A stretch of DNA of 40,672 bases from an uncultured Pseudorhodobacter sp. (GCA_945957495.1 CAMFLG010000001.1:1-40672); one strand, 5' to 3'. Shown: positions 1 to 40,671, numbered from the stretch's first letter. The notes: a model not told the origin generated them from the letters alone. Numbers and translations: made by a program.

Positions 1-318
1 GTCGGAGAGTGTGTCGCGCATGGCTTCAAGATCCGTGATTTTGGCCTCAATTTGCTTGAGGTGATCTTTTGCGATTGCGCGCACATCGGCGCTGGCACGG
101 GATTTGTCTTCCCAAAGCGCAAGCAACGCGCGACAGTTGTCAATCGTAAAGCCCAAGGCGCGGGCGCGACCCAGAAACGCCAGTTTGTGCATGTCGCTGT
201 CGCGAAAAGCACGATAGCCATTGCCATCGCGCAGGGGTTTGATCAGGCCAATGTCTTCGTAGTAGCGAATGGTTTTGGCCGGAAGGCCCGAGCGGTTGGC
301 AACGTCTGAGATATTCAT
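1..318 (-). CDS. cueR: Cu(I)-responsive MerR-family regulator CueR (3' end runs off the window)
   Basis: Not in the ORF track. Manual translation from ATG at 318: MNISDVANRSGLPAKTIRYYEDIGLI...GYRAF...LAFLGRARALGF...RASADVRAIA. Ser in RASADV is typical of monovalent-metal MerR sensors. RBS AAGGAG; directly downstream of copA. Confidence 0.93.
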   Translation of the reverse strand, partial: MNISDVANRSGLPAKTIRYYEDIGLIKPLRDGNGYRAFRDSDMHKLAFLGRARALGFTIDNCRALLALWEDKSRASADVRAIAKDHLKQIEAKITDLEAMRDTLSD

Positions 319-329
319 CGGTCTCTCCT

Positions 330-2859: not shown

Positions 2860-2883
2860 GGTTCCTGCTACTGGAAGGTCAAG
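2860..2883 (-). promoter_or_regulatory. CueR-type promoter/operator for copA-cueR
   Basis: Minus strand TTGACC overlapping ACCTTCC-AGTAGCA-GGAACCC (CueR-like dyad), with a long MerR-type spacer. Confidence 0.8.
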
Positions 2884-2908
2884 CCCTGAAGAATAATTTT
2901 CTTCCCCC

Positions 2909-2939
2909 TTGACCTTCCAGTGCTGGAAACCCTCACTTT
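2909..2939 (+). promoter_or_regulatory. CueR-type promoter/operator for copZ
   Basis: TTGACC-19 bp-CACTTT with the dyad TTCCAG-TG-CTGGAA in the spacer. Confidence 0.8.
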
Positions 2940-2963: not shown

Positions 2964-3161
2964 ATGACCAGACTTTCAATTCCGGACATGAGCTGCGGAC
3001 ACTGCAAAGCGACCGTGGAAAAAACTGTGACAGGCCTGGACCCGACGGCGAAAGTGGCCGTCGATCTGGCCACGCGCCATGTTGACGTGACCAGCGCAAG
3101 TACCACCGAAGCTCTGATCGCCGCGCTTAAAGGCGCCGGATTTGAGGCTGCGGTCGCCTAA
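2964..3161 (+). CDS. copZ: Copper chaperone (single HMA domain)
   Basis: 65 aa, MSCGHC motif, GGAG RBS, divergent from copA. Confidence 0.93.
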   Translation: MTRLSIPDMSCGHCKATVEKTVTGLDPTAKVAVDLATRHVDVTSASTTEALIAALKGAGFEAAVA

Positions 3162-3250: not shown

Positions 3251-3535
3251 TCACATTTTCATGTGCATGCTATCCATCAGCGTCATTTCTGGCATCCCTT
3301 CGCAGCCAGCCATGATTTTCATCATCGCTTCGTCGTCAGAGATTTCGCCAAGCATGGATGCCGCCATCGGATCGACCTTGAACGCCTTGGTCGCAGTCAT
3401 CATCGCGTCGGCATCCAAAGCCAGATAATCCTTGCAAGTCATTTTTGCCGCATCGGTAGTGTCCTGAGCCATAGCATGGGTTGCAAACACCATGGCGATC
3501 ATACCAAATGCCAGGGCTGCTTTAGTTGACTTCAT
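3251..3535 (-). CDS. Small periplasmic Met-rich HdeA/HdeB-like protein
   Basis: Sec signal ending AMA; KMTCKDYLALD plus a second C-x3-P near the C-terminus resemble the HdeA/B pattern; AAAGGA RBS. Confidence 0.65.
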   Translation of the reverse strand: MKSTKAALAFGMIAMVFATHAMAQDTTDAAKMTCKDYLALDADAMMTATKAFKVDPMAASMLGEISDDEAMMKIMAGCEGMPEMTLMDSMHMKM

Positions 3536-3708: not shown

Positions 3709-5649
3709 CTATGCATGGCTTACTGGCCCGCTGTTGTCGGGAGGCAGGATCAAGCTGCTCAACCGCTGCAACTCCGTGCCGATCCTGCCGCGCTGATCGG
3801 CAGGATAAGCGTCAATGGGCGGCAATCCTTTGTTCAGATAAAACAGCACCAGATCCCGCGCGATCGGGGCAGCTGCCGTTGAACCACCGCCACCATGTTC
3901 CACAAGTACAGAAACGGCAATTTCTGGTTTGTCGAAGGGGGCGAAAGCGGTGAACAGCGCATGGTCCCGTCGTTTCCAAGGCAGTTCCGCTTGGGTGCGC
4001 ACACCGTCCGCGCGCTCGGCGGCCGTTATGCTGAACACTTGGCTGGAGCCCGTCTTGCCCGCCATGAACTGCCCTTCGGTCACAATCCGAGAGGCCTTTG
4101 CCGTCCCCCGATCCGAATTTACGACTTCAAACATGCCTTGATGAACTAAAGCCAAAGACGCCGTTGAAATGCCCAAGGAGTCGGCCAACGGATCAGCGTC
4201 ATCAGCCTGCGGTTTCAAGATGCGCGGAACGATGGCTCGGCCAGAGGCAATCCGCGCGGCCATGATGGCAAGCTGCATCGGGGTAGCCAGCACAAAGCCC
4301 TGCCCGATTGAGGTGTTGATCGTATCGCCGATCAACCATTCGTTTCCCTGCTTCTCCTGTTTCCACGCGCGGGACGGATTGACCCCGGCCGACATGCCTG
4401 AAAACGGCAAATCGGGGCGCTGGCCAAGACCAAGCCGGGCATTCATCGCGTTCAGACCTTCAATGCCAACGCGCTGCGCCATTTCGTAAAAGAACACATC
4501 GCAGGATTCCCGCAGCGCACCCTGCAGGTTCACCCGCCCGTGGCCGCCCTTTTTCCAGCAGTGAAACTTGCGGCCTGCGATCTCGACAAAACCGGGGCAA
4601 CTGACTGTTTCTTCTGGTGTCACGCTGCCCGCTTCAAGCGCAGCGAGCGCGAGCGCCATCTTGACTGTCGAACCAGGCGGATAGGCGCCTTGCACAGTCT
4701 TGTCGGCCAAAGGGCGATACTCGGAGTCTCGCAGCGCGCCATAGTCACGTGACGATATTCCATTCACGAACAGATTCGGGTCAAACGAGGGGGCGGAAAC
4801 TGACGCCAAGATGTCGCCACTACGAACGTCTATGACAACCGCAGCGGCGCTCTGATCACCTAGCCGCGCGAGGGCGAAGTTTTGCAGATGATGATCAAGC
4901 GTCAGGTGGAGCTCTTCGCCCGTCGTCGGTGCCGTTCGTTCAAGATCGCGCAAAATGCGGCCTGTGGCGTTGACCTCAACTGCCAGCGTGCCCTGAACCC
5001 CACGCAATTCGTTTTCAAACGCCTTTTCAATGCTGATTTTGCCGATCTTGAATCCTGGCAGCGACAGCAAAGTGTCTTCGGTACCGGCCTCTTCAAGGTC
5101 ATTCGCGCTGACACGCCCGACATAGCCGATGGTATGCGCAAAGTCGGGGCCAAACGGGTAAGTTCGTTGCAGAACCGTATCGAGGTTTACGCCAGGCAAG
5201 GCTGGCGCGTTGACGGCAACCCGCGAAAGGGTTTCCCACGTGATGTCTTCGGCAACCGTAAGGGGCACAAAGGCGCTGGTCTTCTCACTTGTTTTCAGGA
5301 TTTCGGCAATTTCGTCATCGGTGATTGGCAAGATGAACTGGAGCCTTCTGAGTATAAGGGCCAAGTCCCCTGCCCGTTCACGCACAATCGACACCTGATA
5401 CGTTGGCCGGTTAGCCGCCAGGACATCGCCGAACCGATCAAGGATCCGCCCACGTGCCGGGCTGATCGGTTGCACGCTGATCCGGTTTTCCTCCGCCAGC
5501 AGACGGTATTGCTCGGCGTCCCTGATTTGCATCTGGCGCATGCGTAATCCCAACACACCCATGAAAGCGGCTTGGGCACCGCCCAATACGAATATTCGCC
5601 TCGTCAGCCTTTTCTGGGTTTCTTCCCCAGCCCTTGCAGAACGGCGCAT
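3709..5649 (-). CDS. mrdA: Penicillin-binding protein 2 (class B DD-transpeptidase), accessory paralog
   Basis: N-terminal TM, RGRILDR, RTYPFG, SxxK (STVK), SCD, KTG. ATG overlaps the upstream stop (TGATG). Confidence 0.92.
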   Translation of the reverse strand: MRRSARAGEETQKRLTRRIFVLGGAQAAFMGVLGLRMRQMQIRDAEQYRLLAEENRISVQPISPARGRILDRFGDVLAANRPTYQVSIVRERAGDLALILRRLQFILPITDDEIAEILKTSEKTSAFVPLTVAEDITWETLSRVAVNAPALPGVNLDTVLQRTYPFGPDFAHTIGYVGRVSANDLEEAGTEDTLLSLPGFKIGKISIEKAFENELRGVQGTLAVEVNATGRILRDLERTAPTTGEELHLTLDHHLQNFALARLGDQSAAAVVIDVRSGDILASVSAPSFDPNLFVNGISSRDYGALRDSEYRPLADKTVQGAYPPGSTVKMALALAALEAGSVTPEETVSCPGFVEIAGRKFHCWKKGGHGRVNLQGALRESCDVFFYEMAQRVGIEGLNAMNARLGLGQRPDLPFSGMSAGVNPSRAWKQEKQGNEWLIGDTINTSIGQGFVLATPMQLAIMAARIASGRAIVPRILKPQADDADPLADSLGISTASLALVHQGMFEVVNSDRGTAKASRIVTEGQFMAGKTGSSQVFSITAAERADGVRTQAELPWKRRDHALFTAFAPFDKPEIAVSVLVEHGGGGSTAAAPIARDLVLFYLNKGLPPIDAYPADQRGRIGTELQRLSSLILPPDNSGPVSHA

Positions 5650-6119
5650 CAAATATTCCCCAAACCAGCCACATCAGGCGACAAGAGCCGCCGCTTGCGC
5701 CATTCGGTGCGGATCGCGACGAGCAGCAAGACTAAGCCAACTGCGGTAAATGCTGGGCGGATTGGGTCGAACCAGCGCATCAGAGCTTGGCTCCCGAAAA
5801 GAATCATCAGGATTTTGTTGCAGGTGGGGCACGCAATCCCGAGGAAGGACGCGACACTGCCCAGCCCGGCCTTCCTGGTCGAACAGTTTGGTTGCCGGAT
5901 CGCCGTGAACACGCCCACGAGGCTGGCAAAGGCGATAAGTGAGGGGAGTTCCCATCCTTCAATAGGTGCCATCCTCGTGAAGAACGGATTCCACCAGACG
6001 GCCGTGACTGTTTCCATTGCCGCAAAGCTGAAAGTTGCGAACAGGATACCGCGTATGATCCTGTGGGGATCGTGACGGGCAACATGCGCGGCAATCTTGT
6101 TGGTAAGGCCCATGTCCAT
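5649..6119 (-). CDS. Hypothetical membrane protein with CxxC motif
   Basis: About four hydrophobic segments, GIACPTCNKIL motif; tightly packed in the operon. Confidence 0.75.
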   Translation of the reverse strand: MDMGLTNKIAAHVARHDPHRIIRGILFATFSFAAMETVTAVWWNPFFTRMAPIEGWELPSLIAFASLVGVFTAIRQPNCSTRKAGLGSVASFLGIACPTCNKILMILFGSQALMRWFDPIRPAFTAVGLVLLLVAIRTEWRKRRLLSPDVAGLGNI

Positions 6120-6122
6120 CGC

Positions 6123-6551
6123 CTACTCCGCCGCAAAAAGGACTTCGGCGAACTCATCGCCGTATCCAACGTTCATGATCCACATACCCGCCATGGGGAT
6201 TTTGCCTTTGCTTCGCCAAGCGCCGGGGCCAACCAGTTCCAGCGGTTGGTCGAACCCGTCCATATGCATGGTGGTCATGGAGAGAACCACGTCAGGCGGC
6301 ATGCTGGACGGGATGTTCGACGTCGGGTCAGGTGAAAACTGAACTTCAATCCGATAATTTAGATCACCTGTCATGTAGACTTGGGCCTCAATCAGGCCAT
6401 CTGAAAGTTGCTCTGAAAGGATCGCAGCCGGTTGGTCTGCTGTGGAGTCAGTTTCAGCTTCTGGGCCAGAGCGCAGCGCACCCCAAGCGAACAAGGCCAT
6501 GAGCACAAGCATCGGAAGCCCAAAAAGGGCGCTGGCTATTTTCACAATCAT
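6123..6551 (-). CDS. Membrane-anchored YtkA/FixH-like protein
   Basis: N-terminal TM; C-terminal LSMTTMHM...GAW...PMAGMW pattern; ATGA overlap with the upstream gene. Confidence 0.65.
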   Translation of the reverse strand: MIVKIASALFGLPMLVLMALFAWGALRSGPEAETDSTADQPAAILSEQLSDGLIEAQVYMTGDLNYRIEVQFSPDPTSNIPSSMPPDVVLSMTTMHMDGFDQPLELVGPGAWRSKGKIPMAGMWIMNVGYGDEFAEVLFAAE

Positions 6552-7525
6552 TCCATGACCATCCCCGGTGTATGGACCATTCCGGTCATCCCAGCGTCCG
6601 CGACAGGCGTTTCGGCCGCGTTCGCCGCCGGTAACTTGCCGTCTATTTCCAAAAGGTAAGTCGCGATTGCCTCACGGTCGGCCTCCTCCATAAACGAGGT
6701 TCCGGCCTGCACCACTTCTGCCATACCGCCGCCGAACACATCTCCGTCGGGCATCACCCCGGTGCGCAGGGCGTAGGCCATGTTGGCGACAGTCCAGCCT
6801 TTGGCCACAAGGTCCGCCGCCAAGATCGGTGGTGCTTTGCTGCCATCCGGCAGAGTATCGTTACCCGCCAGCGCTTCGCTGTCTTTCAAACCGCCCAGCA
6901 TGTTTCGCCCGGTGTGACACGCCGCACAATGAGCTGGCCCGGTCACCAATTGCTTACCCCGGTTCCAGGCCGCACTTTGCCCCATCACGGGCGAGATTTT
7001 CGCGGGCTTCATATAGGCCGCGCGCCAAAGTTTCAGACCCCAACGCAGATTGAACGGAAAGCTGACATCGCTTTCTGCGGCTGCCACCGGAACTGGTGGT
7101 ACGATCTGAATGGCTGCCCAAAGATCGGCCACATCCTGATCAGAGAAATCGGCAAAAAACTCATACGGGAACGCGGGATAATATGCTTTTCCATCCGGCC
7201 GCACACCTTGCCGCAAAGCAACCGCGAACTGATCCAACGACCAGTTGCCAATCCCGCCGTCAGGATCTGGGGTGATATTCGGCGGCACAAAGCTTCCAAA
7301 AGGCGTATCCAGCGGCGCTCCGCCCGCAAGGGCAGCCCCCCCTGAGGTTGCGTTAGTGTGGCATGCGATGCAACCAGAGGACCGGGCGAGGTAGGCTCCT
7401 CGATAGGCGTCGCCCGCCATCATACCCAGATGCACCGGTTCGGCGATCGGCCATTTTGCGATGATGGCAATGCCGACAAGTCCAACCGTGCCAACGGCAA
7501 CAGCCGTGCGAATGAGCCCACGCAT
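6548..7525 (-). CDS. Diheme c-type cytochrome
   Basis: CIACH and CAACH, PNITPD and YPAFPY motifs of the dehydrogenase cytochrome c subunit type. Start moved to ATG 7525, 1 nt after the upstream stop. Confidence 0.88.
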   Translation of the reverse strand: MRGLIRTAVAVGTVGLVGIAIIAKWPIAEPVHLGMMAGDAYRGAYLARSSGCIACHTNATSGGAALAGGAPLDTPFGSFVPPNITPDPDGGIGNWSLDQFAVALRQGVRPDGKAYYPAFPYEFFADFSDQDVADLWAAIQIVPPVPVAAAESDVSFPFNLRWGLKLWRAAYMKPAKISPVMGQSAAWNRGKQLVTGPAHCAACHTGRNMLGGLKDSEALAGNDTLPDGSKAPPILAADLVAKGWTVANMAYALRTGVMPDGDVFGGGMAEVVQAGTSFMEEADREAIATYLLEIDGKLPAANAAETPVADAGMTGMVHTPGMVME

Positions 7526-7526
7526 G

Positions 7527-8189
7527 TCAGTTGCCCTTTCGGTAAAGGGAGTGGCAGGACGCACAGGTCTGGCTGATCTTCTCGAACACGACGTTCGCAG
7601 CCGTTACTTCAAAGTCGATACCGGTGAATTGACCCTTCGCGGTTGGCGCATCAGGCGTGGCTGCGGTCAGATCCGAGCGCGCAACGAGGCCCATCAGTTC
7701 TTCGGTTGTGAATGTGGTAACCGGACTCTTTGCGGGCATTGTGGCCGCATCCATGTCCGCCATTCCGGACATGGATGCGGCAGGTAAGGCAGGCGGCGCG
7801 ATGAGAGCAGGCGCCTCAAGTCCATTGACCGCCGAAATATCCAATCCTTCGGCATAAATCCGTAAATCCTCGGAAAGGGCCTCAAACCGAGCCCAGTCGC
7901 TCCAGATCTCAGGCTTGGCATAAGACGTTGCCGGGATCGGCTCCTCGGGAAACAGTCCTGTCAAGTTACCGCTCGCATGGCTTTGCAGAACAGCTGCTGC
8001 ATCGCGCACGGCCTGTTCGTCATAGGGGATCTGCCCCTGCATCATTGGAGCCAGACCCTTCATGACATCCCGCATCGCGGACATGCCCATCATGCGTTCC
8101 ATCACAACGCCCGTGGCCCCGTTATGCGCCAATGCCGCTGCCCCAAGCGACGATAGGGCTATTACGCCCAGTATTTTGTTTTTGAACAT
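7527..8189 (-). CDS. Cytochrome c'/c556-like protein with Met-rich insertion
   Basis: Signal peptide, AHNGATGVVMERM, AKPEIWSDW, C-terminal CASCH; about 80-aa low-complexity insertion. Confidence 0.85.
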   Translation of the reverse strand: MFKNKILGVIALSSLGAAALAHNGATGVVMERMMGMSAMRDVMKGLAPMMQGQIPYDEQAVRDAAAVLQSHASGNLTGLFPEEPIPATSYAKPEIWSDWARFEALSEDLRIYAEGLDISAVNGLEAPALIAPPALPAASMSGMADMDAATMPAKSPVTTFTTEELMGLVARSDLTAATPDAPTAKGQFTGIDFEVTAANVVFEKISQTCASCHSLYRKGN

Positions 8190-8198
8190 TCTTCACCT

Positions 8199-8250
8199 GT
8201 CTGATTGCTGTCTTGCTCGGGCTGAAAGCCCGATCGGAACAACATCAGAC
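8199..8250 (-). promoter_or_regulatory. mRNA stem-loop linking the leader stop codon to the downstream RBS
   Basis: GUCUGAU (contains the stop) pairs with AUCAGAC immediately 5' of the SD AGGUGA; GUUGU/ACAGC middle stem; inner hairpin UCGGGCU-UUC-AGCCCGA. Confidence 0.7.
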
Positions 8251-8574
8251 GCGGGGAGGCGGCGTATCAGACGCAGGGTGGAAGGCAGTCAAAAGGGCTG
8301 CCTGTGGCGGCAGGAAGCGCAGTCGAAGCGCAGACTGTGCGGTCATGACCGACACATCCGATGGCATCACGAACACCGAGCATGATGCGTAAGAGTGGCA
8401 ATTTGCCGGAGTTTGCATCTGCGCTGCGGCTGCAACCACAAAGGTTTGATGCGGCGCTTCATGGGTTTCGGCAACCGGTACCGTCGACAGAACAAGTGTC
8501 AAAATCACCAGAAGGGCTGACAGCAGGCTGCCAACCTTTCGGATAAGACACAAGATCTGGCCGACACCGCGCAT
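8245..8574 (-). CDS. CutF/DUF2946-like exported leader protein 1
   Basis: 109 aa from ATG 8574 (TGATG overlap); hydrophobic N-terminus, CHSYASC, C-terminal DTPPPRV. Confidence 0.72.
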   Translation of the reverse strand: MRGVGQILCLIRKVGSLLSALLVILTLVLSTVPVAETHEAPHQTFVVAAAAQMQTPANCHSYASCSVFVMPSDVSVMTAQSALRLRFLPPQAALLTAFHPASDTPPPRV

Positions 8575-9044
8575 CACATGATCCCATTTTCGCGCTGCAG
8601 TTCACGGACGTATAGGATGATCGACGCGATTTCGCCATCGGTCAGTTTTTGTTCAACGGGCAGCATCGACCCGAACGACCAGTGGTGCTGACGGGCGCCA
8701 TCCCGCACGGCAACAAGGAAAGCCGCATCTCCATGATGCGAGGGCTCGTAAATCTTGTGAACCAGTGGCGGTGCGATCCCATCCTGGCCAGCGGCGTTTG
8801 CCCCGTGGCACGATGCACAAACGGCATCAAAATAGGTCTTTCCAGCTGCGGCCTTAGCAGAGAGCGCTGCTGGCAACCGGACTTCGACCATGGCGTCCCC
8901 CGTCTTCATAGACGTGGTTTCAAGGGTTTGCACCGCCGAGCCAACAGGCGCGAATCGCGAAAAAAGCAAGAACGCAGCCCCCAAACAGGCAACGGCCAAC
9001 AAAATCCGCCATGTTTTCTTGACCTTCATGCCTGCCCTGCCCAT
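8574..9044 (-). CDS. Monoheme c-type cytochrome
   Basis: N-terminal TM, CASCH, APPLVHKIYEPSHHGD, HHWSFGSM. Start may be the second Met. Confidence 0.88.
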   Translation of the reverse strand: MGRAGMKVKKTWRILLAVACLGAAFLLFSRFAPVGSAVQTLETTSMKTGDAMVEVRLPAALSAKAAAGKTYFDAVCASCHGANAAGQDGIAPPLVHKIYEPSHHGDAAFLVAVRDGARQHHWSFGSMLPVEQKLTDGEIASIILYVRELQRENGIM

Positions 9045-9192: not shown

Positions 9193-9215
9193 ACCTTCCA
9201 GCGCTGGAACCTCAA
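9193..9215 (-). promoter_or_regulatory. Putative CueR-like operator upstream of the cytochrome c operon
   Basis: TTGAGG followed by the perfect dyad TTCCAGCGCTGGAA(GGT), same core as the copA/copZ boxes; -10 is weak. Confidence 0.55.
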
Positions 9216-19072: not shown

Positions 19073-19155
19073 ATGCTCCGTTTGGCTTCGGTGAAGCCAT
19101 TTCAAACTGGAATGCGCCGCAGACTTGCAGCGCCGTTTCAAGTATGACGAAGCAT
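19073..19155 (-). promoter_or_regulatory. SD-sequestering mRNA structure upstream of the oxidase
   Basis: AUGCUUCGU (19155-19147, inside the leader) pairs with ACGGAGCAU (19081-19073, the SD). Encloses hairpins GCGCUGCA/UGCGGCGC and UGGCUUC/GAAGCCA. Confidence 0.75.
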
Positions 19156-19509
19156 GTCGGGTGGACGTTGTGCAGGATCAGGAATGAGCGAGGTCCACGC
19201 AGGACCGACTTCCCCCAACCAAGTTGTCGCCTCGATCCTTGCAACCCGCCCAACGACAACGCCACCTTCGAGCCTGTCCGACCCGAGGCACAGTGTGGCA
19301 CAAAGTGAACCATTCATTTTAGAATGCTGGGGATCGCCATGGCTTGTTTGATCTTGGACATGTCCTGCATGGATCATCGTCATGGACATTTCATGCGCCT
19401 GAGCGCTCATCCCCAAGTGGGATGTGTTCAAAGCAAAAATCAGCGCCAGCACAAGAAGACTGTGCAGCGTCGAAACAAATTCAAGAACGGTGCGGCTTCT
19501 TGAGTGCAT
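19138..19509 (-). CDS. CutF/DUF2946-like exported leader protein 2
   Basis: Signal-like N-terminus, His/Met-rich segment, CATLC (CxxxC), PDPAQRPPD tail; directly upstream of the multicopper oxidase. Confidence 0.82.
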   Translation of the reverse strand: MHSRSRTVLEFVSTLHSLLVLALIFALNTSHLGMSAQAHEMSMTMIHAGHVQDQTSHGDPQHSKMNGSLCATLCLGSDRLEGGVVVGRVARIEATTWLGEVGPAWTSLIPDPAQRPPDMLRHT

Positions 19510-24690: not shown

Positions 24691-24803
24691 GACTGTCAAA
24701 GCCGCGCAGTTGCGCGATACCGGCTTGGCATTTACCAAGCCGCGCTTACCGCCCGGCGTGAGTGCCGCGCAGTTTACGGGTGCGTTTAGCACCCATGACA
24801 GTC
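24691..24803 (-). promoter_or_regulatory. Multi-branch mRNA structure between leader 3 and the YtkA-cusBA operon
   Basis: GACUGUCA (overlaps the stop) pairs with UGACAGUC immediately 5' of the weak SD GAAAG; inner hairpins GGGUGC/GCACCC and CGGCUUGG/CCAAGCCG. Confidence 0.68.
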
Positions 24804-25131
24804 AGACTTTGGGAGGTCTTCGTAACCCACTGCCTTCCAAGGAAGGCAAAGTTGGATTCGCTGAAAATTCAAAGCGCACGCTCTGAACAATGGGGTGGAA
24901 GTTAGGTTTGGCCGTCGAGGGTGCAACGGCCGCAGGCACTGACAGGCAGGGGACGACCAAAGGGCAATCAGGCATCTTGGCACAGCTTTGCGATGTGCAG
25001 GGCGTACCATCATCCATTTGCATCATCGGCGAGGTTACGGCAGTAACCGCGGCATATGTTTCTTGGGCCGGGGCAACGATCATCGTTGCCAGCGTCAAAA
25101 CCAAACCCAACATGCCTAATAACCTGCTCAT
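24802..25131 (-). CDS. CutF/DUF2946-like exported leader protein 3
   Basis: 109 aa from ATG 25131; signal peptide, MMQMDD, CTSQSCAKMPDCPLVVPC, C-terminal GLRRPPKV. Confidence 0.75.
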   Translation of the reverse strand: MSRLLGMLGLVLTLATMIVAPAQETYAAVTAVTSPMMQMDDGTPCTSQSCAKMPDCPLVVPCLSVPAAVAPSTAKPNFHPIVQSVRFEFSANPTLPSLEGSGLRRPPKV

Positions 25132-25222
25132 CCGAACGTGTTTGCCCGGATGGTCGCCGTCTCGCAAGTCACAATTTGCGGAGCGGCGCTTTGCGAGGGT
25201 GCTGGACTGGACCACCGCATCG

Positions 25223-39909: not shown

Positions 39910-40671
39910 TCAAACCCAATCAGCAAAAGGTAGCCAAACTTCGGCCACCCCTCTTACGCCACCCCGCCTTTCGAGTTGCACAACCAAATCTACCGACCCC
40001 ACGCAGTATCGCTTCACCTCCTCAAACCCCATCCCGAGCCCTGAGGCCATCACCATGATGGCCAACCGATCAATGGCCTTTCGCGCCGTATCGGCATGGA
40101 TCGTCGTGAACGACCCACCGTGCCCGGTATTGATCGCTTCCAGAAACGTCCGGCTCTCCTCGCCACGCAACTCGCCCAGGATGATCCTATCCGGCCGCAT
40201 CCGAAGCGATGCCTCCAGGAGCCGCGCCGGTGTCCGTTCCCCCTGCGAGTTCCGGTCGGCCTTCAATGCCACGACATTCGCTTGGTTTGGGAACAGCTCA
40301 TAAGCATCCTCAATGGTCACCAGCCGTTCAGCAGAGTCTACCATCGCCAAAAGCGATCGCGCAAAGGTGGTCTTCCCCGTCGATGTCCCCCCAGAAATCA
40401 GCACGTTCAGCCGCTTGCGCACGCAAAGCCGCATCGCAGCCTCGACATTGCCGACCTCTGCCAATGCCAGGACTTCTTTCCCGAGCTCCCGCTTGCGATG
40501 ATCCAGATCGATCAATGACCCGTGCAGAAGCGTCGGCTTGATCGGCGCATCTGCCGCGAGTTTGAACGGCCGCAGGGTGATCGCCATTCCACCTTCGACG
40601 ATAGGCGGCGCCACGACTTGCGCCCGGATCGCCATGGCTCCCCAGGTGATCTTCCCTGACACAGTCGGCTT
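39910..40671 (-). CDS. virB11: VirB11-type type IV secretion ATPase (5' end outside the window)
   Basis: SGGTSTGKT, TIEDAYEL, LRMRPDRIILGELRG, NTGHGGSFTTIHAD; frame stays open to the window edge. Confidence 0.88.
   Translation of the reverse strand, partial: KPTVSGKITWGAMAIRAQVVAPPIVEGGMAITLRPFKLAADAPIKPTLLHGSLIDLDHRKRELGKEVLALAEVGNVEAAMRLCVRKRLNVLISGGTSTGKTTFARSLLAMVDSAERLVTIEDAYELFPNQANVVALKADRNSQGERTPARLLEASLRMRPDRIILGELRGEESRTFLEAINTGHGGSFTTIHADTARKAIDRLAIMVMASGLGMGFEEVKRYCVGSVDLVVQLERRGGVRGVAEVWLPFADWV

Follow-up and report, generated by a model that had tools for sequence, protein, structure and literature searches.

An operon on a heavy-metal island of an uncultured Pseudorhodobacter sp. 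places an additional penicillin-binding protein 2 (PBP2, MrdA) behind a CueR-type promoter box and a short leader gene that resembles cutF. We studied it in a complete 40.7-kb contig, called the window here, from a genome that is 82% complete. On the comparisons described below, the more probable explanation is that this is a mobile copper-island operon that supplies a copper-induced spare elongasome transpeptidase to reinforce cross-linking, with partner proteins that protect thiols. The island PBP2 likely works with the chromosomal RodA and MreBCD, keeping the wall cross-linked as copper damages cysteine-dependent wall enzymes. The module itself is real and conserved, and it joins an extra PBP2 like Salmonella PBP2SAL to a putative CutF-type switch through a mechanism that is predicted from sequence.

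The window carries three P1B ATPases, copZ, a multicopper oxidase, cusAB, TlpA, DsbA and a MerR regulator. As the first-pass annotation of this DNA had described, five minus-strand open reading frames (ORFs) encode a cytochrome c', a diheme cytochrome c, a YtkA-like protein, a membrane protein with a CPTC motif and PBP2 (Pfam PF01322, PF00034 twice, PF00905 with PF03717), and their four junctions are 1 nt, ATGA, 3 nt and TGATG. A leader with a Cys motif and a PPR end and a stem near the ribosome-binding site (RBS) were likewise reported and are present; the leader is not the first gene, however, because a c-type cytochrome gene (9044-8574) precedes it. The module is also larger than that annotation had it: the L,D-transpeptidase (LDT) and MsrQ-like genes that it usually contains had been missed, as had the resemblance of the CPTC protein to MerT and the likely His/Met (low-spin) character of the cytochrome c' homologue. 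Between 9060 and 9400 the window lacks the two LDT genes of two related loci, L006 (83.6% DNA identity to the window) and L007, retaining a 3' remnant and the CueR-type box. L and G numbers label loci and genomes throughout. The features, all on the minus strand, are as follows; dN/dS is the ratio of nonsynonymous to synonymous substitution rates and SD the Shine-Dalgarno sequence.

9196..9215, minus: CueR/HmrR-type dyad with a TTG -35-like hexamer, variant with a 6-nt centre, predicted operon promoter; the same element lies in the same place in L006
9060..9107, minus: 3' remnant of a deleted L,D-transpeptidase gene, from blastn and alignment to L006, which has two YkuD genes there
8574..9044, minus: membrane-anchored monoheme c-type cytochrome, the first intact gene (PF00034); TGATG overlap with the leader start
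8245..8574, minus: CutF-like leader, 109 aa, hydrophobic N-terminus, CHSYASC, C-terminal PPPR; dN/dS 0.29 against L006
8199..8250, minus: mRNA hairpin that starts in the leader's last codons and reaches the base of the cytochrome c' SD (AGGUGA, 8198-8193); z -5.66, covariation
7527..8189, minus: class II cytochrome c (c'/c556 fold), predicted mature N-terminal His, conserved Met-rich insert (PF01322)
6548..7525, minus: membrane-anchored diheme cytochrome c with a Met/His tail (PF00034 twice)
6123..6551, minus: membrane-anchored YtkA-like protein with an MxxMHM motif; the L025 homologue passes PF13115
5649..6119, minus: CPTC membrane protein, remote MerT homologue by HHalign, invariant CxxC
3709..5649, minus: island-clade PBP2 (MrdA paralogue), by TIGR03423, catalytic motifs and clade membership
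3251..3535, minus: HdeA-like Met-rich small secreted protein downstream of PBP2 (PF06411); in the window's subclade only, 5/80 loci

The island PBP2 and its distribution

The PBP2 is intact, as first annotated: it scores 696.9 bits against TIGR03423 (cut-off 455), has PBP_dimer and transpeptidase domains and an N-terminal hydrophobic segment (residues 20-38), and keeps all catalytic motifs, with S328xxK (S328TVK), S383CD and K533TG invariant in 59/59 island PBP2s. A phylogeny against chromosomal mrdA, which the first-pass annotation had suggested as a check, places it as a separate paralogue that is extra to the housekeeping copy. Island PBP2s fall into one clade in a quick IQ-TREE analysis (93% filter, 47 of 85 sequences; support 99), and they do so again in FastTree (88% filter, 72 of 123; support 100); in both trees the clade branches deep inside the family's housekeeping PBP2s at a node that neither settles. 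Identity of the window protein is 58-89% with island copies, compared with 49-56% with housekeeping copies. Its dN/dS against L006 is 0.085, and those of four partners are 0.08-0.29. At least two PBP2 matches occur in 48 of 50 carrier genomes, which thus have an extra copy in addition to the canonical PBP2; of 14 further genomes five have at least two, and the others hold broken or cut island genes, PBP2-less loci or, in one case, a very small bin. The description of this PBP2 as an orphan thus holds in relatives; in the window's own genome it is not decidable, because at 82% completeness neither mreB nor rodA nor a second mrdA is found among the assembled contigs.

Two genomes appear to have gone further. 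In G122 (100% complete) mreB and rodA are full-length and flank matches to mreC and mreD, only 94 nt separate mreD from rodA (L205, G122:C23, 8093-8188), and its sole PBP2 is of the island type; all five congeners of G122 keep mrdA in place. G579, the genome of L054, likewise has full-length mreB and rodA and a 49-nt mreD-rodA gap without mrdA (L218, G579:C2, 6071-6121), and the island PBP2 is its only match. A tree of RodA and MreC from 47 loci requires two independent losses of mrdA. Since mrdA has gone from an otherwise intact mreBCD-rodA cluster in both genomes, the island PBP2 is, we infer, able to serve the elongasome. Both leaders end in RPPR, and both genomes lack the cytochrome c' and diheme genes; L036, which also lacks both cytochromes, keeps mrdA and PPPR. 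It would follow that the stall motif is dropped once the island PBP2 becomes essential. The two genomes differ in other respects: G122 has a degenerate box, has lost the first LDT and has H255 changed, and its cassette sits among housekeeping genes, beside trmD/rplS-like ones, on a contig separate from copA and the oxidase, with the YtkA-like, CPTC, MsrQ-like, cytochrome and ScsC genes kept; in G579 the box and H255 are intact. G580 was considered as a third single-copy case and rejected as an apparent split assembly: its hit coordinates recur in G149, where a partial mrdA lies next to rodA close to a contig start.

Residues C352, C365, H371 and C384 are invariant and occupy the positions of the zinc ligands of Acinetobacter baumannii PBP2, whose zinc site is required for rod shape according to the available text of PMC9974482. 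We rejected the idea that the island PBP2 has been freed of copper-sensitive cysteines, since the Cys3His site is kept and the A271 and A531 differences seen against the genus disappear family-wide. What distinguishes island from housekeeping PBP2s is H255 (58/59 vs 0/64), F540 (59/59 vs 1/64) and a C-terminal LP.

The module is conserved well beyond the window. A scan of GTDB seeded with the CPTC protein confirmed 112 stretches, of which the best 80 were used for locus counts. The gene-neighbourhood search that the first-pass annotation had proposed, naming non-conserved synteny as grounds for abandoning the idea, found synteny kept across loci, with 40 of the 80 in one exact order: LDT, leader, cytochrome c', diheme cytochrome, YtkA-like, CPTC, MsrQ-like, PBP2, cytochrome c and ScsC/DsbA. 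LDT genes are present in 74 of these loci, YtkA-like in 72, MsrQ-like in 69, PBP2 in 67, diheme in 60 and cytochrome c' in 58; oxidase, TlpA and DsbA/ScsC genes border most of them, and the LDT catalytic motif is present in 125 of 133 LDT hits. Where PBP2 is present, 64 of the 67 loci lie near a P1B ATPase or multicopper oxidase, 61 have an LDT and 56 an MsrQ-like gene, and none of the 67 has mreC, mreD or rodA beside the island PBP2, which does not occupy the mreD-rodA position of the housekeeping gene. The MsrQ-like gene is missing from the window's subclade (11 of the 67).

Because seeding with CPTC could bias this picture, we searched 250 genomes of the family with PBP2. A copy at 60% identity or more was found in six, and the five of those six that were opened all adjoin CPTC; all 35 lower-identity hits opened lie inside mreC-mreD-mrdA-rodA. 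CPTC itself occurs in 5 of 300 genomes of the order, with PBP2 adjoining in four and lacking in one. The module is therefore patchy, at about 2% of sampled genomes. Island-type PBP2 is also found on three plasmid records, and both of those opened show cueR and copA alongside. One plasmid record (L135) has additional envelope enzymes on its island, namely lnt, lspA, an M23 peptidase, SCO, PCuAC and a third L,D-transpeptidase, and at the right end of the window a T2SSE/TrbB-like ATPase (39910-40662) suggests a conjugative element.

The CueR-type box and the CutF-like leader

Upstream of the operon lies the dyad TTCCAGCGCTGGAA (9209-9196). It is a variant, with a 6-nt centre, of the CueR/HmrR operator, whose consensus is ACCTTCC-N7-GGAAGG just after the -35 box (PMC1526738, available text). 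Its pattern occurs twice in the window (0.14 expected), the other match being at the copZ promoter; both have the 6-nt centre, as do L006 and L007. When sought within 450 nt of the first LDT, the dyad with either centre (TTCC-N6/7-GGAA), which agrees with that consensus, was found in 51 of 57 PBP2-bearing loci, 50 of them with a -35-like hexamer attached, and in 0 of 12 PBP2-less loci, against a background of 5.4% of random windows. An initial pattern with only the 7-nt centre had matched the copA site alone in the window, which is chance level. No consensus promoter with a -10 box at a 19-bp spacer was found at the window site, and a scan of the window for consensus promoters and terminators gave chance-level results only. 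The CueR box gives the predicted metal control of the operon a second line of support that had previously gone unseen. The divergent copA and copZ genes of the window (2862-2928, 2964-3161; copZ 65 aa) come with two CueR-type dyads, which have 7-nt and 6-nt centres.

In four studies, RNA libraries of close relatives include contigs that span parts of the operon and bridge some of its junctions. We did not count them as evidence of co-transcription: they show neither strand nor a single transcript, one passes the predicted promoter, and the neighbouring stretch is also patchily covered. The copZ-hdeA stretch is matched by near-identical contigs in four RNA libraries.

The second predicted gate is the leader, which ends in DTPPPRV (HPASDTPPPRV), carries the Cys motif CHSYASC and has a hydrophobic segment at residues 18-36 by hydropathy. 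The published description of CutF-type leaders asks for fewer than 150 aa, PP within the last 15 residues and a close same-strand neighbour (bioRxiv 10.1101/2022.11.11.516240, available text), and the window leader has 109 aa, a PPPR end and a same-strand neighbour, cytochrome c', across a 55-nt spacer. We checked 64 cytochrome c' genes for a leader, and the starts of 59 could be located and those of 5 could not; in a search that required PP, an upstream ORF with a PPPR end precedes all 59 located starts, 58 of these ORFs having Cx5C. Among the 60 leaders counted, 59 end in PPPR, the exception being L054, with G122 read separately.

In CutF, according to the available text of two preprints (bioRxiv 10.1101/2022.11.11.516240, 10.1101/2025.02.05.636593), copper makes the ribosome stall at PPP, and the stem that covers the following SD melts. 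The window, too, has a stem, which ends at the SD: the hairpin at 8250-8199 has a z-score of -5.66, with 0 of 200 shuffles equally stable. Across the window and three relatives the scores are -5.66, -3.66, -3.39 and -1.82, significant in the window and two of the three relatives, and both sides have changed in 5 of 20 pairs over five sequences. As the hairpin begins in the leader's last codons, a stalled ribosome would be expected to open it. Loci with a long spacer have a different layout: in 40 of 50, a GUCAGGC-like word stands after the stop and again at the RBS. Both copies complement a central CCUGAC, so that alternative pairings could form. Elsewhere in the window, two short ORFs (19138-19509 and 24802-25215) combine a hydrophobic N-terminus with Cys motifs and a PP near the C-terminus and are likely further CutF-like leaders; the first precedes the multicopper oxidase, the second YtkA-cusBA.

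The partner proteins

The proteins between leader and PBP2 have features of metal and electron handling. In the cytochrome c' homologue, H22, M36, M49, M50, H71 and the M143-M166 region are conserved in 48-52 of 52 homologues, and Met36 (52/52) aligns with Leu12/Leu16 of solved cytochromes c'. A Met at this position is the ligand in c556. Its place at the sixth site suggests a His/Met, low-spin, c556-type carrier instead of a high-spin cytochrome c'. The diheme cytochrome resembles the N-terminal part of dehydrogenase cytochrome subunits. The YtkA-like ORF of the window has no Pfam hit at E 0.01; its homologue in L025 passes the PF13115 cut-off (27.7 vs 25.9), and M92, M95, H96 and M97 are kept in 48-49 of 50.

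C97 and C100 of the CPTC protein, a predicted helical membrane protein, are present in 95/95 homologues. A deep profile of it matches MerT (PF02411) in HHalign at 92% (E 6e-7, 65 aligned columns), against at most 2.3% for ten unrelated profiles and at most 15% for 30 shuffles; a shallower CPTC profile reaches only 19%. The alignment covers the Cys-bearing helix and the following P-x-R/K-P helix. Unlike MerT, the CPTC protein has CxxC for CC, two extra N-terminal helices and no mer genes nearby, and it falls below the Pfam gathering cut-off: 13 of 82 CPTC members are weak hits (best E 0.083), and one distant member gives E 0.0034. Fold searches with two models (mean predicted local distance difference test scores 62.6 and 81.7) gave best Z-scores of 6.0 and 7.7 with no clear match, Foldseek gave none at E 0.001, and an Atlas search and cluster look-ups returned unnamed clusters only. 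The family comprises 705 representatives at E 0.001. A distant member, P0250, is fused to a thioredoxin-like (DUF255) domain, which hints at a thiol-redox link. Taken together, the features of the Met/His-rich and CxxC partners are consistent with proteins that bind copper and transfer electrons at the membrane.

Proposed function, alternatives and known systems

Copper inhibits LDTs through their catalytic cysteine, according to the available text of PMC8630537 and PMC13509353. Given this, and given LDT and PBP2 genes behind a CueR box and a CutF-like leader, copper-induced reinforcement of cross-linking would be the simplest reading. We propose that Cu(I) in the cytoplasm would switch on CueR at the upstream box, which is itself observed, and that periplasmic copper would stall the presumably exported leader at PPP, as in CutF, so that the hairpin melts and the cytochrome c' start is freed. 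The overlapping stops and starts seen at the junctions could then pass translation on to PBP2. PBP2, together with the extra LDT in the usual form, would top up cross-linking; its service to the elongasome is suggested by the two replacements. In the weakest step, the Met/His-rich cytochromes may act at the membrane with the YtkA-like and MerT-like CxxC proteins, and usually with an MsrQ-like reductase, binding copper and passing electrons so as to protect the cysteines of the wall enzymes. We hold tentatively, with slightly more doubt than confidence, to a broader proposal: that this is a new branch of the copper response devoted to the wall, in which a mobile, doubly copper-gated (CueR and stalling leader) alternative elongasome transpeptidase has its own membrane metal-electron relay, the elongasome is a copper target, and the island enzyme has displaced the housekeeping PBP2 at least twice, shedding the stalling motif.

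Several observations weigh against copper-induced reinforcement. The Cys3His site is identical in island (59/59) and housekeeping (64/64) PBP2s; being common to both, it means that the island enzyme is not visibly copper-proof and that the benefit may be dosage only. The replacements number two, one of them (G579) in a metagenome-assembled genome. The window itself has neither LDT nor the MsrQ-like gene, its box is of the 6-nt-centre kind and lacks a clear -10, and its leader has Cx5C in place of CutF's CxxxC; other Cys/His motifs do occur within the wider CutF-like group in the available text of bioRxiv 10.1101/2022.11.11.516240. The window leader matches no Pfam family at E 0.01, DUF2946 included, and DUF2946 finds no match in related leaders at E 0.05. 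The hairpin stops at the SD, which is paired only in part, and the folds tested in the long-spacer clade (z -0.03 and -0.95) are below significance. In 13 of 80 loci LDT, CPTC and MsrQ-like genes occur without PBP2 or box, so the partners need no PBP2. Finally, carriers are related, the 59 distinct island PBP2s collapsing into 23 clusters at 90% and 12 at 80%, and PBP2 is truncated or broken in L011 (near transposase-like ORFs), L012 and L028.

Some of these points bear on other explanations. The persistence of LDT-CPTC-MsrQ without PBP2 or a CueR box would be expected if the YtkA-like, CPTC and MsrQ-like partners were a maturation kit instead of copper scavengers, one that loads the correct metal into, or keeps reduced, the Cys3His site of PBP2 and the LDT cysteine, with the island PBP2 dependent on them. 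DsbG is known to protect LDT cysteines (PMC10907172), and the G122 cassette has kept its partners away from the copA and oxidase contig. We nevertheless consider this unlikely, as the housekeeping PBP2 has an identical site and no such neighbours, and the window's subclade does without the MsrQ-like gene. Moreover, MxxMHM and Met-rich motifs are better suited to Cu(I) than to Zn. It is decidedly unlikely, in our view, that the operon is an accessory to copper redox chemistry and export, its cytochromes and chaperones serving the oxidase and pumps while PBP2 and the LDTs remodel the wall around machines such as CusBA. Such a role would account for the oxidase, TlpA and DsbA/ScsC genes that border most loci and for cusAB within the window; against it, the operon has its own box and a leader distinct from that of the oxidase, and its PBP2 appears to replace a general elongation enzyme in two genomes.

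It seems very improbable that PBP2 entered a copper island in a single capture and has since travelled along as a passenger, playing no part in copper stress: the gene stays in frame and overlaps its neighbour in two subclades about 60% identical, its dN/dS is 0.085 and its catalytic residues are invariant in 59/59, even though it has a single origin, three loci hold broken copies and 13 of 80 have the partners without it. There is, similarly, little chance that the cue is another CueR ligand (Ag, Au) or a linked stress such as acid, as with Salmonella PBP2SAL. CueR does answer Cu, Ag and Au (PMC1526738, available text), CutF-like leaders are not uniformly copper-specific in the accessible parts of the CutF preprints, and the window's subclade has an HdeA-like gene after PBP2; that gene, however, occurs in 5 of 80 loci only, and the genes around the operon are those for copA, copZ, multicopper oxidase and Cu chaperones.

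Copper-induced reinforcement by a spare PBP2 has partial counterparts in known systems. Salmonella PBP2SAL, as described in the available text of PMC10492807, is likewise an extra PBP2; it uses the same RodA and MreBC as the canonical enzyme and responds to an environmental cue. There the cue is acid pH in the host, and sharing of RodA is predicted here from the replacements; the island PBP2 differs further in travelling on mobile copper islands and plasmids of environmental Rhodobacterales, with a CueR box, a stalling-type leader, cytochromes, metal-binding partners and LDTs. The cutF-stem-loop-cutO arrangement of Rhodobacter capsulatus, in the available text of both preprints, likewise has a short ORF with a hydrophobic N-terminus, a Cys pair and PPPR, followed by a stem-loop within a short spacer; it too stands in a copper context, and its C-terminus (PEPEGPPPRL) resembles that of the window leader (HPASDTPPPRV). 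Unlike CutF as presented there, the window leader has Cx5C, has no DUF2946 hit, lies inside a longer operon and would gate a cytochrome-to-PBP2 block. In the available text on A. baumannii PBP2 (PMC9974482), D350/D365/H371/C384 correspond to C352/C365/H371/C384, with the SCD second motif in common; the site here is Cys3His, not Asp2HisCys, and is common to island and housekeeping alphaproteobacterial PBP2s. Described CueR/HmrR regulons (PMC1526738) and alphaproteobacterial copper islands (PMC13707694) share, in their available parts, the operator consensus and copA, copZ, oxidase and cytochromes in islands.

The first-pass annotation knew of no description of this arrangement, and we found no account of it in the literature searched, including PMC12516126 and PMC13707694; subscription papers mostly lie outside that search, and the neighbour table of the CutF preprint (File S1) could list such leaders. 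The available text of PMC13707694 mentions no penicillin-binding protein and lists one L,D-transpeptidase, uncommented, in its supplementary island table, and the word 'penicillin' is absent from the main text of bioRxiv 10.1101/2022.11.11.516240. Nor did we find, in the same literature, a described genetic answer to copper damage of wall synthesis, and the operon supplies candidate parts for such a response. If our proposal is correct, an alternative elongasome enzyme has spread on plasmids under metal selection, and CutF-type leaders have a new output. The two mrdA replacements would constitute a natural experiment in which a gated accessory gene turns housekeeping, and about 700 MerT-like CxxC proteins would gain a first functional context.

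Some minor observations concern the loci themselves. In Aminobacter/Mesorhizobium loci L013-L015 and L018-L020, LDT-CPTC-MsrQ-like genes follow pstB-phoU-phoB-like genes, with no PBP2 or CueR box, and the genome of L013 has no PBP2 match. Records titled as archaeal, Bacteroidota, Bacillota or Verrucomicrobiota (L032, L040, L054 and L085) are likely mislabelled or misbinned, since their loci fall within or look like islands of Rhodobacterales. The left end of the window (1-320) matches the start of the MerR-family gene that comes after copA in L006.

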